From positions 17,320 through 49,089 of the forward strand of contig CAYRPF010000015.1 of the NCBI GenBank assembly GCA_964426185.1: 31,770 nucleotides of DNA. The letters are read 5' to 3'. The stretch comes from an uncultured archaeon. GTDB taxonomy: Archaea; Asgardarchaeota; Lokiarchaeia; Sigyniarchaeales; Promethearchaeaceae. This document shows positions 8,120-14,833 of the stretch, in pieces. Both the position numbers and the translations under genes were made by a program. Numbering within the stretch: the first letter of the stretch is position 1; each line of letters starts with the position of its first letter. The notes beneath the pieces are model-generated. The model was given only the letters and a program-made list of their open reading frames with translations, had not been told where the DNA came from and ran no database searches.

Positions 8120-9394
8120 TTAATTTTTTATTAATTCCGCGACATCTTTGCACAAAAGAAAAATTCCAACATTTAATGGAAGCGTATATTCTTGACCATG
8201 AATTAAATTATCATATATCTTATTTCCAATGCGTATTGGAGGGCAAATTGGCGCGGTAATCTTCAGAGTTAACCGATTGGGGCTATTTTGTGGAAATGTA
8301 AGAGCATCAACTAAGGGATCAAACTCATCCAATTTATCATAGGGAACATCCACCACTCTTAATCCTGCTTTTCCATGTATTGACCCTTCTAAGCGGATTA
8401 AACGATGAAGATCGATTGAAACCACCACATCTATGTCAGCTTTAATTCGATCCCGTAAAATCTCGAAAATACGATGCCAAGTAGCAAGACCTACATGGGG
8501 AATTCCCCAAATGCGATTCTTAGATTCGATTCGATGCATTAATTCTAATCTTTGGTCGATAATATGGTGTAAAACATTAGAGCGAATCGGAGTTCCATAT
8601 CGCGGCTTGGTAAAGACTTCTTGAATGGCATTTTTTCCTTTTGCCAAGACTTGATAGAATTCATACGCAATTTTTCCCGGCCATCCAGGTTGATCAATAG
8701 TAAATCCAACCATATTCGCTTGAATGGTTTTAAAATTCCAAACATTATAAGAAAAACCTTGGCCTGTAACATAATCTGCAATCTCTCTTCTTTCTTCTTG
8801 ATCTAAAGCACGAAAAACTTCCGATTCTATGCGAACATGATAACCACGGTGACCAGAAAAGTTGAGTTTAATCGCAGAAAGAGGAATATTAAAATCTTTT
8901 AGTAAAAATCCGTCAATCAAGTGATGAACTTGTTCTTTCGAAATATTTAGGCATTCATCACAGATCCAAACCACCTTTTTAAATTTCTTATTATGGCAAT
9001 CGGGACATTCTTCAGGTTTATCCCCTATCAGTAATTTACCACAATTTTTGCACATTACGTAATTGTGAGTATGCTGACAAGAAGTAGGAATATGATCTGA
9101 ATCAATATCTACCACGAAATCACAACCTAAATACCCTTTATTCTCCATTTTATCTGCAGATGGAATAGAATAAATACTGGCACTGCGGTAACTATGCCTT
9201 GGAGCATATTTTATCAAATAATTTAATAGAAAAGATTTATCAGGATAACCAATATGTCTTTGCATTCCCGGATAATCCCAGCGAATAAAGGCAAATTCTC
9301 TTTGATTTAAGTTGCTTATCGCTGGGTAATCGTTAAAATGCGACTTGTAATATGCTTGAAACAATTTTTGTAAGTATAATTGGGTTAAATTCAT
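8120..9394 (-). CDS. priS: DNA primase small (catalytic) subunit
   Basis: QREFAF, DFVVDID, FSGHRGYHV, DVVVSIDLHRLIRLEGSIHGK. Confidence 0.96.
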   Translation of the reverse strand: MNLTQLYLQKLFQAYYKSHFNDYPAISNLNQREFAFIRWDYPGMQRHIGYPDKSFLLNYLIKYAPRHSYRSASIYSIPSADKMENKGYLGCDFVVDIDSDHIPTSCQHTHNYVMCKNCGKLLIGDKPEECPDCHNKKFKKVVWICDECLNISKEQVHHLIDGFLLKDFNIPLSAIKLNFSGHRGYHVRIESEVFRALDQEERREIADYVTGQGFSYNVWNFKTIQANMVGFTIDQPGWPGKIAYEFYQVLAKGKNAIQEVFTKPRYGTPIRSNVLHHIIDQRLELMHRIESKNRIWGIPHVGLATWHRIFEILRDRIKADIDVVVSIDLHRLIRLEGSIHGKAGLRVVDVPYDKLDEFDPLVDALTFPQNSPNRLTLKITAPICPPIRIGNKIYDNLIHGQEYTLPLNVGIFLLCKDVAELIKN

Positions 9395-9400
9395 AACAGA

Positions 9401-10729
9401 TCACTTTTCTTTGGATGGATTGGTTGGCTTTGATGAAGATGATGAAGATGATGAAGTTTGAGAACATGGAAAAGATTGTGAAGAATGTGAAGTTGAAGAA
9501 GATGAAGTGTTTGAAGTATTTGAAGGAATTTGGGTCCTGTGAATTCTGTTTAATTCAACTTTTTTCCAGAAAATATAATCGTTAATGGGATTTTTTATTG
9601 GATGAATAGTTCCATCTTTCCATTTTGCACCTTGTACACAAAGTTTATCCCCAAATTGTGGATTATCTGCTTTGCATAAACGAAAACTTTTCAATTTCGC
9701 ACAGTTGTACATTTTATACTTCTTTCCTTTTCCCCCCGAACCAGCCGCAAATTCCACTTGATACCTCGCAATTGATTCATCGAAGTCAGGGATAGTTCTA
9801 AAAATATCCACAGTTTCTTCTATAGTATGGTTTGTATTCAGAAAATAAAAAGCAATGGCTAAGCGTTCATTATGAGATAAGTTTTCACCTTGTGAAGCAC
9901 GATATAGAATCATTTTCATACAAGGCGGGAATAAATCATATTCAATTTTTTCATCACTTAAAAAACCCGAAGAAGAAAACTTTTTTGTATTTTCCTCCAC
10001 AAATTTTTCTACAACATTTAAAATCCGTTTAATAGGCGGAATTTTTTCGATTTCTTCCTTAATATCTGCATCAATGATATTGTAATCAGGTTTAGTTTTA
10101 TTTCTAACCATTTCTCTTAATAATAAAATTACGTCATCACGGATTAGGTGTACTTTACCATTTTGGAAAATCCGATTAATTAATTTCCATCGATCCCCAG
10201 TTAATTTTGTTGCAACCTTCAGATACGAATGAAAATCCATTTGAAAAGGATATATTACATTATCAATTTGGTTTTTGGGAGTTACTTCACAAAGTAATCC
10301 AAGATTACGGCAGATACTTTGTAATTGAATATTATTATATTTAATACCAGACCGAGTACGGGTCGAAATTGTAGATTTTAATTCATTTTGACAATGCTTG
10401 GCATAGATATTAGCCATGGCATTTCCAAGTATACGATTTCCTAATAATGAAAGAAGCATTTGAATAACGGGATACATCGCTAAGTTTGTGACATCACCTG
10501 ATGAAAAGGGATAATTTTCCTTGGATTCTGCACAATAATTAAAAAATTTAATAATGCGAGATTCTAATTCAGGAAATTCGCTAAAAAGCTGTTGGATCAT
10601 GACGACTAAAGATATCTTCTCCGCATCTTCATCTGAAAATCCCAATTTTTCCATCAATATAGCACTACTGCCATTAAGCCATGGAAATTGGAGAAAATAT
10701 TGAGAAGGAAGAGAAGGTTTGGAACTCAT
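9401..10729 (-). CDS. priL: DNA primase large subunit with [4Fe-4S] C-terminal domain and Ser-rich tail
   Basis: WKLINR..NGKV, FPPCM, NLSHNERL, PDFDESIARYQVE, YNCAKLKSFRLC, LC..IKNP. Confidence 0.94.
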   Translation of the reverse strand: MSSKPSLPSQYFLQFPWLNGSSAILMEKLGFSDEDAEKISLVVMIQQLFSEFPELESRIIKFFNYCAESKENYPFSSGDVTNLAMYPVIQMLLSLLGNRILGNAMANIYAKHCQNELKSTISTRTRSGIKYNNIQLQSICRNLGLLCEVTPKNQIDNVIYPFQMDFHSYLKVATKLTGDRWKLINRIFQNGKVHLIRDDVILLLREMVRNKTKPDYNIIDADIKEEIEKIPPIKRILNVVEKFVEENTKKFSSSGFLSDEKIEYDLFPPCMKMILYRASQGENLSHNERLAIAFYFLNTNHTIEETVDIFRTIPDFDESIARYQVEFAAGSGGKGKKYKMYNCAKLKSFRLCKADNPQFGDKLCVQGAKWKDGTIHPIKNPINDYIFWKKVELNRIHRTQIPSNTSNTSSSSTSHSSQSFPCSQTSSSSSSSSKPTNPSKEK

Positions 10730-10873
10730 AATTACTCACTTCTGAGTATATATTTTATGATATATGGAGCTTCCGAAGAAAGTTCTGCCTTTATAAATTC
10801 ACTGTATTCAAATTTAATAATTTGATCAAATTTTTTAAATAGTAAAAAATTTGTTTTACAGAAGTGAAAAACT

Positions 10874-12307
10874 ATGAAGATTAATGAAATTATTGCTTCA
10901 TGGAAGCCTGTTAAACGTTGGGTTACCCTAATTAGCTTTCTATTATCTTTCTCGACATTAGCTTTGCTAATATGGGTAATTTCTTTGCCAAGAAATATGC
11001 AGTTGTTTAAGTGGAGCCCTCCACAAAGACAGATTTTTATTATAGTTTGCATCGTTGCAGCTATTGTGCCATTAGGATTTGTATTTGATTTCATTTTTCG
11101 AATGAAAAAAAATGTAATTTCAAAAAAAATCCCTGGAAAATATGTATATGCCTTAGTATTAATTGGAATAATACTACCAAGCGCATATTTGATTTATCTA
11201 TCTCCTTACCATCACGTGGGGGATAAAGCACCTGAACTCATGATTATTGATCAACCAGGTGTGAGTGGTTATCCAAATTTAGCCGTAATGTTTTATACTC
11301 AAAAGGCCACCACCGAATTCATTAATTATGGCACAAGTATGTCTGACATGGACACTCAAGTTCTTGATTCGAATCCGATCCATTCACATGTTTTTGTTTT
11401 AAAAGATCTAAATCCCGGTATACAATATTTTTACCAAATTAATGGAGAAGGAAAAATATATAATTTTACCTATTTTCCTGCATCTACCAATGATTTAAAA
11501 TTCGGAATTAGCTCCGATGTGCATATAGGAGCAGAAGATTGTAATTTAACGGCAGTTACTGGAATTTTGGAACAAATGGTTAATCCTACAAATTCATATA
11601 ATGCCTTTTTCTGTTTAGGAGATATTGTTGATATGGGAAATGATGACAGCATGTATCAAGAACAAATTGAATTATTCTCCCCATATACAACCGCAATTCC
11701 ATTTCGGAACATGATAGGTAATCACGATGGATGGTTCGGTGGAGTAGAATTTTGGAAGGACTATTTTTATCCTGTAAATGCACCAAGTAATTCCAGCGAT
11801 TCTCAGCTGTGGCATCAATATGATTTTGGTCCCAATATTCATGTTTTTAATTTAGACTTAGAATGGGGAATAGAATCATACACGGAAGCTCAAAAGGTTT
11901 GGTTTGAAGAAAAACTGCAAGCATTGGATCCCGATGACTGGATTATCGTTATGAACCATGCCTATTATTACGCTTCAAGCACAGAATATGATGGAATCCC
12001 TTGGTATGACAATCCTGATATGATTAACACTTTCCAACCATTATTTAAACAATATGGGGTGGATTTAGTGTTCGCAGGGCATGATCACCAAATGGAGCAC
12101 ATCGCCCAAGATGGTGTTGACTACTTCATTGTTGGTGCAATGGGCGGTTATCGTGATAAAGATCCAACTTTTTACTCGGAAAATTCGCAATTCTTTGATA
12201 ACACTCATTTTGGATTTGCAGATGTGCAATTTAATGGAGTTAATGTCACAGTTTCATTCAGAACTCCAGAAAATACTTTGCTTTATAATGTTACAATTAA
12301 TCAATAA
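10874..12307 (+). CDS. Membrane-anchored purple-acid-phosphatase-like metallophosphoesterase
   Basis: Three N-terminal TM helices, FN3-like region (LKDLNPGIQYFYQI), and motifs SDVH, GDIVD, GNHD, VMNH, GHDH. Confidence 0.88.
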   Translation: MKINEIIASWKPVKRWVTLISFLLSFSTLALLIWVISLPRNMQLFKWSPPQRQIFIIVCIVAAIVPLGFVFDFIFRMKKNVISKKIPGKYVYALVLIGIILPSAYLIYLSPYHHVGDKAPELMIIDQPGVSGYPNLAVMFYTQKATTEFINYGTSMSDMDTQVLDSNPIHSHVFVLKDLNPGIQYFYQINGEGKIYNFTYFPASTNDLKFGISSDVHIGAEDCNLTAVTGILEQMVNPTNSYNAFFCLGDIVDMGNDDSMYQEQIELFSPYTTAIPFRNMIGNHDGWFGGVEFWKDYFYPVNAPSNSSDSQLWHQYDFGPNIHVFNLDLEWGIESYTEAQKVWFEEKLQALDPDDWIIVMNHAYYYASSTEYDGIPWYDNPDMINTFQPLFKQYGVDLVFAGHDHQMEHIAQDGVDYFIVGAMGGYRDKDPTFYSENSQFFDNTHFGFADVQFNGVNVTVSFRTPENTLLYNVTINQ

Positions 12308-12385
12308 GAGAAATTTGCTATTTACCGTAGTTTTCTCTTCTTTTTTATATTATATTCATAGTTATTATGAGGTCCCAAAGAGTTG

Positions 12386-12437
12386 CACTCTTCTCCGATT
12401 ATCGCATCGTTTATCGATAATCATCATCGCGAACGAT
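12386..12437 (-). ncRNA. Eukaryote-type (Loki-type) SECIS element in the 3' UTR of the UU selenoprotein gene
   Basis: Minus strand: AUGA (12427-12424), UGAUUAUCG (12423-12415), loop AUAAACGAUG, CGAUAAUCG (12404-12396), GA (12395-12394). Nine contiguous base pairs (one U-G), an AAA in the loop and an AUGA/GA core, starting 15 nt after the TAA. Confidence 0.85.
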
Positions 12438-12442
12438 TAAAT

Positions 12443-12772
12443 TTAATGTAATATCTTTTTCAAAAAAAGTTCAGAGCGATTACTAAGAGAAATATACGCA
12501 TCTTGGTTATTTTCTAAGATGGAAGGCTCAATCCAAATTGGAATTTCTAAGTTTTTCATATACAGTTCAACAAGTTTTTTATGTAAACTTTGCTCCAATT
12601 GTACTCGATCTTCTGCGGAAAATTTCTGAGAATAATCGCAAATTCTCACATGATAGAAATCTATCAATCCTCATCATTGGCTGGTTTTTTCCAGAGTTAT
12701 TAATAACACTGGTGTTTTCATTTTCTTTGCTTCAGAATTCACATATTTCATAGCTTTCGTAGAAATTTTCAT
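12443..12772 (-). CDS. HesB-like / CC-Se-motif family selenoprotein with two adjacent Sec (U33-U34), 109 aa
   Basis: SD GGGTG 5 nt before ATG 12772 (alternative ATG 12784 overlaps the upstream TAA). Reads MKISTKAMKYVNSEAKKMKTPVLLITLEKTSQ-TGA(12676-74)-TGA(12673-71)-GLIDFYHVRICD..., in frame with track ORF 12443..12667. Aligns with the Cys-Cys paralog upstream; SECIS downstream. Confidence 0.85.
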
Positions 12773-12783
12773 CCCATCACCCA

Positions 12784-13074
12784 TTATGTATCCGATATTG
12801 ATTTTTCTAAAAAATTTAACGCTTTAATATTTCCAAAGGTTCTAATGTCAATTATTCCTGAATTCATATATTTTTCGGTATTTCGAGAGAAATATACTTT
12901 GATATCATCAAATTTTTTGATATCTACAATTTCTTCTTTACGAATCTTTTTTCCAAGGATAATACGCGGGATAAATTCAGTACTGCAACAAGATCTCATA
13001 GTGATTTCTACAATGGTTAATTCTTGTATGCTTTTTTCTTGAAGGTATTTTTTAGCTTTTTCGGTTATGTGCAT
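12784..13074 (-). CDS. HesB-like / CC-Se-motif family protein (Cys-Cys form)
   Basis: MHITEKAKKYL..TMRSCCSTEFIPRIILGK..DIKVYF; ATG 13074 follows GGGAG (track start 13104 is probably too long). Confidence 0.8.
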   Translation of the reverse strand: MHITEKAKKYLQEKSIQELTIVEITMRSCCSTEFIPRIILGKKIRKEEIVDIKKFDDIKVYFSRNTEKYMNSGIIDIRTFGNIKALNFLEKSISDT

Positions 13075-13109
13075 GATTTCTCCCTTGATGAAATATCCTT
13101 GCAAAAAAA

Positions 13110-13520
13110 TTAGGGATCTAAATATTTAACAGTTAAATTTGCAATATGTTCTGCCAATTTAGTGCAATATTCATGATTTTTCCATTTAAAGTCATTTAAA
13201 GGTCCTTTTTCAATTTCTTCATATTCTTGGGGGTTGAAAAATTCATTTAAGAATATACTTTCCACGGGTTTAACTCCTATACTTTCGACTCCCTTTTTGG
13301 CGCAGGCTTTATCGCATCCATCTATAGTAATACATGGAAATTTTTTCACAAAATTTTGTTCTTGTTCATCTCCCGCTAAAAAGAGGGGAACGCAAACCGT
13401 GGTTGTCATTCCTTTTAAGTATTCATCCAAAACTTTTCTTGTAGCAAGGCGCGAAATGGTTCCACACGGATATTCTTCCCCACTACATGAAAGTAGTCCA
13501 ACAAATTTTGGTTTAAACAT
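13110..13520 (-). CDS. DGC-domain putative Zn/metal-binding protein
   Basis: SCSG..GTISR, VC, ITIDGCDKACA. Confidence 0.9.
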   Translation of the reverse strand: MFKPKFVGLLSCSGEEYPCGTISRLATRKVLDEYLKGMTTTVCVPLFLAGDEQEQNFVKKFPCITIDGCDKACAKKGVESIGVKPVESIFLNEFFNPQEYEEIEKGPLNDFKWKNHEYCTKLAEHIANLTVKYLDP

Positions 13521-13940
13521 TTATGCTTCACCGTGTACACTAACTAATTCATCAATTAACTCTGAGATTTCGATTCCAATTCGTTTTGCGAGTTGCTGAC
13601 CATCTTGACCAGGATCAGAAACATTTCTGGTATTAACCTTCAAATCACGATTTTTTACCAAGAATTTCGCCACTAAAAAAGATTTAGAAACTTCTGCATC
13701 TTTTTCAAGTAAGTGTTTATAGGCACACCTTTTTGAGCAACCGTCAATAGTGATATTATAATTATGATGCACTTTTGCTACAGATTCATCATCACCAGTA
13801 ACCAATCGAGCCAAGCATAATAATTCCGCATTTTCGGGTTTTAAATTTTCCTTTATCTCAAAAGCAGCCCATCGGCTAATCGTACCGAATGCTTTTCCAA
13901 TACCACTACACGGTAATACATTTACTTTGGTTTTGTTCAA
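13521..13940 (-). CDS. DGC-domain putative Zn/metal-binding protein
   Basis: PCSG..GTISR, LCL, ITIDGCSKRCA; TTG start overlaps the upstream TGA. Confidence 0.9.
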   Translation of the reverse strand: MNKTKVNVLPCSGIGKAFGTISRWAAFEIKENLKPENAELLCLARLVTGDDESVAKVHHNYNITIDGCSKRCAYKHLLEKDAEVSKSFLVAKFLVKNRDLKVNTRNVSDPGQDGQQLAKRIGIEISELIDELVSVHGEA

Positions 13941-14833
13941 TATTGTAACCCCTCTTCTTTAATTTTTTCTTCTAAAAATTCAAAATACTGATATGGATTC
14001 ATCAAATCATCGATTTCTTCCTTATAATTAGGACATTTTACTAAAACAATCCATCCCTTCAAATATGGATCTTCATTAATCCATTCAGGATATTCTTCTA
14101 ATTCATGATTTACAGCCAGAACTTCCCCGCTGAATGGAGTTAATACTTCATTTACAGTTTTACTGGACTCGATATTTGCGACGGCTTCGAATTGATCGAT
14201 TTTATCTCCTATTTTAGGCAGTTCACATATTAAAATATCGGCCAATTTTGTTTGCAAATAATCGGTAATCCCAATGAAGAATTTCCCTTCCCCAATATGA
14301 TAAGCCCATGCTTCATTCCAATTAAAAAAGAGGTTTTTATCATTCACTGGAACTTTGAAATGAAATTTTGAAAACTCCGCTTCCAAAAACTGAGAGTATT
14401 CGGGATTAAATTCAACCTTATTTTCTGGTTTGGTTTCCATATTTTGACTTTTTTCTAAAAAAACCTCGATTTGGCTTAGAATCTGATTTGATATGGATTT
14501 AACGGCTTCATGATCTTGATAATCAAGGGTAGCCTGACCTTTCTGTGGAAGTTTTATATCTTTTATGATTTTAGGTATGCTTATAATTAAATTTGGTTTT
14601 ATTTTGCGCTGATTTAAGATTTTATTGACACATTGAATAGCACATCCATTTAAAGCAATAGTATTGTCACCCAAAATGCTTTCTTTGTATTCACCTGCGG
14701 CTATTTGAGATATGGAAGGCTCTAATGTTATTTTTGACGGATTTGCGCGTTTTAAATGTAAAATGGCTAAAGTGCAAAGTTGGCCTAATAATTTTTCACA
14801 TCCCATACAAGGTATAACAATGTTTTTCTTCAT
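13937..14833 (-). CDS. Fusion: N-terminal DGC-like domain + C-terminal GcvH-like lipoyl-carrier domain
   Basis: PCMG..IALNGCAIQCV (DGC variant), then NEAWA..IGITDYLQTKLADI..IESSKTVNEVLTPFSGEV..NEDPYLKGWI with the lipoyl Lys intact. Confidence 0.9.
   Translation of the reverse strand: MKKNIVIPCMGCEKLLGQLCTLAILHLKRANPSKITLEPSISQIAAGEYKESILGDNTIALNGCAIQCVNKILNQRKIKPNLIISIPKIIKDIKLPQKGQATLDYQDHEAVKSISNQILSQIEVFLEKSQNMETKPENKVEFNPEYSQFLEAEFSKFHFKVPVNDKNLFFNWNEAWAYHIGEGKFFIGITDYLQTKLADILICELPKIGDKIDQFEAVANIESSKTVNEVLTPFSGEVLAVNHELEEYPEWINEDPYLKGWIVLVKCPNYKEEIDDLMNPYQYFEFLEEKIKEEGLQY

Follow-up and report, generated by a model that had tools for sequence, protein, structure and literature searches.

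The stretch of DNA analysed here, referred to as the window, comprises 31,770 nucleotides and contains a short gene with two directly consecutive in-frame UGA codons. A hairpin in the 3' untranslated region behind this gene resembles a SECIS, which raises the question whether it is one, whether a single element serves both UGA codons, and which parts of the surrounding RNA belong to it. Pattern searches, covariance models and a comparison with genes of the same family in related genomes indicate that the hairpin is very probably a genuine Loki-type SECIS belonging to the gene of 109 codons at 12772-12443. The element supports, independently and at the RNA level, the reading of the tandem UGA-UGA as Sec-Sec that the original prediction had put forward.

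The hairpin behind the tandem UGA gene

The window lies on contig 15 of an assembly of 3.26 Mb with 34 % G+C. The organism is a Lokiarchaeial (Promethearchaeaceae-type) Asgard archaeon that shares its family, but not its genus, with Promethearchaeum syntrophicum MK-D1. In the order of transcription, the following features were located:

12784..13074, minus strand: Cys-Cys paralog upstream, a gene of the same family (NF041239, 33.7 bits, cut-off 40)
12443..12772, minus strand: CC/Se-motif (HesB/IscA-like) gene of 109 codons with U33 and U34, the UU gene, from translation and hhalign
12671..12676, minus strand: UGA-UGA, two codons presumably recoded by the SECIS, in the column that holds UU, UC or CC in paralogs and orthologs
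12431..12434, minus strand: GUUC, tentatively the 5' strand of helix I and separated by 3 nt from AUGA, from a constrained fold
12424..12427, minus strand: AUGA, 5' half of the kink-turn-type core; UGA is invariant in 33 sister elements
12415..12423, minus strand: 5' strand of helix II; its first position is the U of a U-G pair beside the core
12405..12414, minus strand: apical loop of 10 nt with AUAAAC at its 5' end, three unpaired A and a terminal G
12396..12404, minus strand: 3' strand of helix II
12394..12395, minus strand: GA, 3' half of the core; GA in 32 of the 33 sister elements, AA in one
12377..12393, minus strand: hairpin 2, the side arm, with a stem of 6-7 bp and a GCA loop, abutting GA
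12372..12375, minus strand: tentative and weak 3' strand of helix I (GGAC), 1 nt after hairpin 2

The AUGA lies 15 nt past the TAA stop codon (12445-12443, minus strand), and its distance from the UGA-UGA (12676-12671) is 244 nt. The original prediction had placed the core 15 nt from the stop and about 245 nt from the UGA codons, which proved correct, and the AUGA/GA core, the 9-bp helix and the unpaired AAA of the loop that it had described were all found. Helix II has nine pairs and no mismatch if the core-adjacent U-G is counted. In the sister elements this position is usually non-Watson-Crick (A-G, U-U), thus the helix is better described as 8 bp and one quartet position.

Folding with RNAfold had been suggested as a check, and both hairpins were present in the MFE and centroid structures; a stability above that of shuffled sequences was not obtained. 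The fold energy is ordinary (MFE -15.5 kcal/mol, z = -0.52 versus shuffles), so the case for a SECIS rests on pattern and comparison and not on stability. An oligo-U run, present behind most sister elements, is absent after this SECIS on its own strand. The 135-nt spacer 12308-12442 is common to the UU gene and a convergent metallophosphatase-like gene (10874-12307, plus strand).

The AUGA...GA core could form the tandem sheared G-A pairs of a kink-turn. On the mRNA, the SECIS, on its own or with the help of an adaptor, would bring in SelB/EFSec loaded with Sec-tRNA(Sec), and both UGA codons 244 nt upstream would be read as Sec, yielding a Sec-Sec dipeptide where the paralogs have Cys-Cys or Sec-Cys. 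The GCA-loop hairpin after GA is very probably a third arm, as in the sister elements, where a closing helix I completes a three-way junction. That the RNA is transcribed across the element, bound by a factor and used for the insertion of Sec is inferred.

The Sec machinery is encoded in the assembly, with tRNA-Sec, a Sec-containing SelD, SepSecS and a SelB-like factor whose score exceeds the family cut-off. The selD gene of the host genome has one in-frame UGA and vhuD/FlpD has two, and both genes are trailed by elements of the same geometry, i.e., [A/G]UGA, nine positions, a loop, nine positions and GA. This geometry recurs after three further genes with in-frame UGA, one on contig 42 (Cys-Sec-Sec) and those of the CC/Se type on contigs 86 and 16, and in the element after the UU gene on contig 43, seven of eight positions pair. 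The loop [A/G]UAAAC...G, as in the candidate, recurs in the elements behind four selenoprotein genes of the host genome, selD, vhuD and two more.

Two observations concern individual elements of this genome. The tandem-Sec open reading frame on contig 42 (2045-2566, plus strand, about 173 codons), which encodes the Cys-Sec-Sec motif, has a SECIS (2550-2583) whose apical loop contains the TAA stop codon. On contig 88, a run of N at about 8290-8390 starts about 107 nt past the stop of vhuD, shortly after its SECIS; these bases, a gap or masked, hide the 3' end of the vhuD locus.

CC/Se-motif genes and their elements in related genomes

The UU gene belongs, as a divergent member, to the CC/Se-motif family (NCBIfam NF041239), which is weakly related to Fe-S_biosyn/HesB of Pfam. 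BLASTP of the UU protein against the adjacent CC paralog gave nothing, and profile methods alone connect the two. The alignment of the UU protein with six family members by hhalign had a probability of 97.2 % and an E-value of 4e-11, the UU being aligned to UC/CC; six of the seven aligned members matched NF041239. The Cys-Cys paralog (12784..13074) has no SECIS of its own, the sole SECIS-like match downstream being that of the UU gene.

A close ortholog of the UU gene was not found in 80 relatives, in a collection of genome contigs or in metagenome contigs. A search of 5.8 billion proteins with the UU gene retrieved only three near-identical fragments, all beginning after the UGA codons. The complete genome of a member of the same genus (G001) contains the syntenic operon DGC-GcvH/DGC/DGC without the CC and UU genes, hence the CC/UU pair was gained or lost here in a lineage-specific manner. 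No SECIS-like match was present in that syntenic operon. Comparison of the locus on contig 1 of G001 (1600900-1605000) with the window at 9401-14833 revealed that DGC-GcvH, both DGC genes and a PriL-like gene are kept; G001 has neither the CC gene nor the UU gene and its SECIS, the metallophosphatase is likewise missing, and a 226-aa membrane protein is encoded instead.

A profile search in 151 genomes of the order identified 41 copies of the CC/Se-motif gene, almost entirely within the window's own family, where 12 of 13 genomes have it. Most copies carry one UGA (Sec-Cys) or two (Sec-Sec), and a genome of this Promethearchaeaceae-type family can have as many as 4-5 copies, in both of these forms. 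The host genome has further CC/Se-motif genes on contig 86 (1066-1365, minus strand), contig 16 (15353-15655, minus strand) and contig 43 (5685-5999, plus strand); beyond these, 36 further places in 17 related genomes were obtained. P. syntrophicum MK-D1 carries an orthologous type of gene and element, a UU-type gene and a SECIS of this kind at about 2,058,777-2,059,082 of NZ_CP042905.2.

The decisive check, named already in the original prediction, was the comparison of UGA-containing with Cys-only copies. A SECIS of this geometry was present at or just after the stop codon in 30 of 35 UGA-containing copies, versus none of the six Cys-only copies. Nine genes of the UU type, distributed over six genomes, are each accompanied by only one such element, which supports the earlier proposal that one SECIS serves both UGA codons.

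Because the linkers vary in length, MAFFT misaligned the structural parts of whole elements, and a gap-free subset of 18 elements was used for the covariance model and for the pair counts. In this gap-free alignment, eight of eight pairs of the upper helix change on both sides. The proportion of paired upper-helix cells was 95 %, compared to 54 % after shuffling and 29-56 % with the partner strand slid, a figure inflated by ascertainment through the pairing filter. The diversity of pair types in the upper helix is not inflated by this filter.

Five UGA-containing genes of the family, among them G008_C49, G002_C144 and G014_C210, are without an element that passes the filter. These may have variant cores, or may reflect assembly or annotation problems. 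Behind one of the five, a gene of G001 (3231793-3232095, minus strand), a perfect 9-bp hairpin with AUGA is followed by UA in place of GA. One Sec-Cys gene of the family, in a single-contig genome of 6.0 Mb (G010; 1501-1797 of the locus), appears to end with a UGA only about 15 nt before the SECIS. In this gene UGA would be read as Sec early in the frame and probably as stop beside the SECIS, which could make it a natural case for the minimal distance between UGA and SECIS.

The side hairpin and the closing helix

The original prediction had noticed the second hairpin and had regarded it as a possible competitor of helix I, which was drawn as UC-UUC/GAAGA. For the analysis of this region, the 33 sister elements were lined up together with their flanks, and helix I and the side hairpin were analysed by custom parsing of the elements rather than from the MAFFT alignment. 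Nearly all 33 elements have a small hairpin 0-3 nt past GA. The loop of this hairpin, which sits at the same place as in the candidate, contains G-pyrimidine in 30 elements and GC[A/C] in 24 of 33, the latter compared to 8 % of shuffles; stems of at least 5 bp were found in 52 % of the elements versus 23 % of shuffles. Complementarity between the 5' flank, 2-6 nt ahead of AUGA, and the nucleotides immediately past the side hairpin was seen in most elements, and the sequence of this helix I is wholly different between paralog groups. The longest helix I had a mean length of 6.97 bp with the true partners and 5.47 bp with permuted partners, and none of 20000 permutations reached the observed mean. 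For two ortholog groups, RNAalifold arrived at the three-way junction de novo.

In the candidate itself, the closing helix has only 4 bp (12434-12431 with 12375-12372; GUUC/GGAC), a length at chance level, at a position that agrees with that in the sister elements. Constrained folds of the whole junction had weak z-scores against shuffles (mean -0.9) because AU-rich flanks pair anyway, and the comparison of true with permuted partners was more informative.

Judged by comparison of the sequences, the adjacent GCA-loop hairpin is very probably a conserved third arm of the SECIS and not a competitor; the hairpin itself (12393-12377) stands as originally described. Helix I normally closes behind this arm as a three-way junction, and is marginal in the candidate. 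Another reading takes the SECIS as real, yet as a plain eukaryote-like form of two helices with helix I UC-UUC/GAAGA, next to an unrelated hairpin that serves, e.g., in the protection of the 3' end. We consider it unlikely. A bulged helix I of 5 bp can indeed be drawn, and the shortness of the closing helix in the candidate speaks for it, but the side hairpin formed in the MFE and centroid structures excludes this pairing, and the conserved GC[A/C] loop, the pairing of the 5' flank past the side hairpin and the de novo junctions of RNAalifold argue against two helices. Since helix I UC-UUC/GAAGA must melt the conserved side hairpin, it was rejected on this comparative evidence.

Specificity and relation to known SECIS elements

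The preferred reading, a Loki-type SECIS with a side arm, was set against the background of the genome by descriptors of different stringency. An initial, much looser pattern had 6600 matches in the genome and was uninformative. A loose SECIS filter gave about 800 matches, with a chance rate of 0.03 per 260 nt. The strict descriptor demanded [AG]UGA, N and eight perfect pairs, a loop [AG]NAAA...G, and then GA; it had six matches in 6.5 Mb (both strands), all directly behind open reading frames with in-frame UGA, and no match in five random genomes of a first-order Markov model.

Two covariance models were applied. The model R1 was built from three other elements of the host genome, a test that the original prediction had proposed, and the candidate was the top non-training match genome-wide (27.8 bits, E-value 0.03). 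The model R2 was built from 18 elements with 11-nt loops, the candidate being left out, and was run without filters on the window and six other loci. The candidate scored 29.7 bits (E-value 2.4e-5), the next best match in the window 15.5 bits. R2 also recovered the non-training elements of contigs 16, 86, 26 (selD) and 42.

An AU-rich hairpin that arose by chance in a convergent spacer, with the UGA codons as real stops or the gene in decay, is very improbable. Such a hairpin would agree with the unexceptional fold energy and with the many matches of the loose filter, but not with the strict descriptor, whose matches were confined to places behind UGA-containing reading frames and absent from the random genomes, nor with the E-value of R2 for a candidate outside the training set. 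The protein is conserved on both sides of the UGA codons, its UU aligns to CC and UC, and the same arrangement recurs in eight further UU genes of related genomes and in one more of this genome. The least probable explanation, with hardly any weight, is that a box C/D small RNA of archaeal type, or some other kink-turn RNA bound by L7Ae, lies behind the gene by chance: on the 5' side a heptamer similar to box C can be read and Rfam snoZ7 matched weakly at 12385-12430 (21.3 bits, E-value 0.73), but this score is far under the gathering score of 43, a CUGA box D and C'/D' boxes are absent, the stretch expected to carry guide sequences forms a perfect self-complementary stem, a feature absent from guide RNAs, and sister elements without the box C heptamer keep AUGA, stem and GA.

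The type of element is already known. In the lokiSECIS, AUGA precedes and GA follows a 9-bp stem, the loop of 11 nt is A-rich at its start and has G as its last nucleotide, and the element is located near the stop codon (Mariotti et al. 2016, PMC4989117). One lokiSECIS can serve several UGA codons, even in two genes (PMC4989117). The lokiSECIS has been generalised as the Asgard eSECIS-like type I/II (Huang, Xiao, Zhang 2024, PMC11227280); the type I model has a stem of 7-15 bp with at most two mismatches and a loop of 8-20 nt (PMC11227280). Elements of this kind have AUGA or GUGA directly before the upper stem and GA, rarely AA, directly after it; the candidate agrees with lokiSECIS and type I in these flanks, in stem length, loop and position, and in scoring with covariance models trained on other elements. 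The candidate shares with the lokiSECIS the AUGA/GA flanks, the stem of nine positions, the A-rich start and terminal G of the loop, the location in the 3' untranslated region near the stop codon, a Lokiarchaeial genome with the full Sec machinery and the service of several UGA codons by one element. It differs in its loop of 10 nt, compared to 11 nt fixed in the 2016 set, a length within the 2024 model and found in nine sister elements. It also differs in that the recoded UGA codons are directly adjacent and in that it serves the CC/Se-motif family NF041239, outside the seven Asgard selenoprotein families of the 2024 survey, to which the supplementary sequence and alignment files of that survey refer (PMC11227280). 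A 2026 review lists NF041239 without an archaeal mark and with one Sec (PMC13188914).

The published core features of eukaryote-like elements in Lokiarchaeota, to which the original prediction had appealed, thus match the candidate. The designation as eukaryote-type holds for the resemblance and fails for membership in the eukaryotic SECIS of Rfam: a search of 11800-13200 at E-values up to 10 returned no SECIS family and only weak snoRNA-like noise. The candidate belongs to the lokiSECIS and not to the eukaryotic SECIS of Rfam (RF00031, SECIS_1), from which it differs by a shorter upper helix and by lacking a convincing helix I and an internal loop of the eukaryotic form. SBP2 has been reported absent from Asgard genomes (PMC11227280). 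With the euryarchaeal SECIS of Methanococcus and Methanopyrus the candidate has in common the position in the 3' untranslated region of an archaeon, and the vhuD elements of methanogens also have AUGA...GA (PMC4989117). It differs from the euryarchaeal elements by an uninterrupted stem, without a GAA/A bulge and without a G-C-rich upper stem.

The models of Mariotti 2016 and Huang 2024 consist of core, upper stem and loop, with no side hairpin or junction (PMC4989117, PMC11227280). Measured against the elements of this family, the published hairpin model is incomplete, as it has neither the side arm nor the closing helix. A kink-turn that has its canonical-helix side extended by a third helix into a three-way junction, the k-junction, is known from TPP riboswitches (Wang, Daldrop, Huang, Lilley 2014, PMC4005666). 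The sister elements would be analogous in topology, as far as it can be read from secondary structure; their third helix comes after GA and ahead of the 3' strand of helix I. We consider it possible, at a little less than even chances, that the functional Lokiarchaeial SECIS is a kink-turn-based, k-junction-like three-way junction, whose GC[A/C]-loop arm is a putative recognition site for a factor replacing SBP2 or for the Asgard SelB.

The survey adds a multi-copy HesB-like family, the CC/Se-motif genes, to the Asgard selenoproteome; in the 2024 survey and the 2026 review the family is confined to bacteria. It also provides a collection of about 30 SECIS elements specific to this family. If the junction reading is true, the CC/Se-motif family adds about 30 independent covarying examples, including those of Sec-Sec genes, and the cultured MK-D1 makes a direct test possible. 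The incompleteness of the hairpin model bears on the origin of the eukaryotic SECIS/SBP2 system from an archaeal one.
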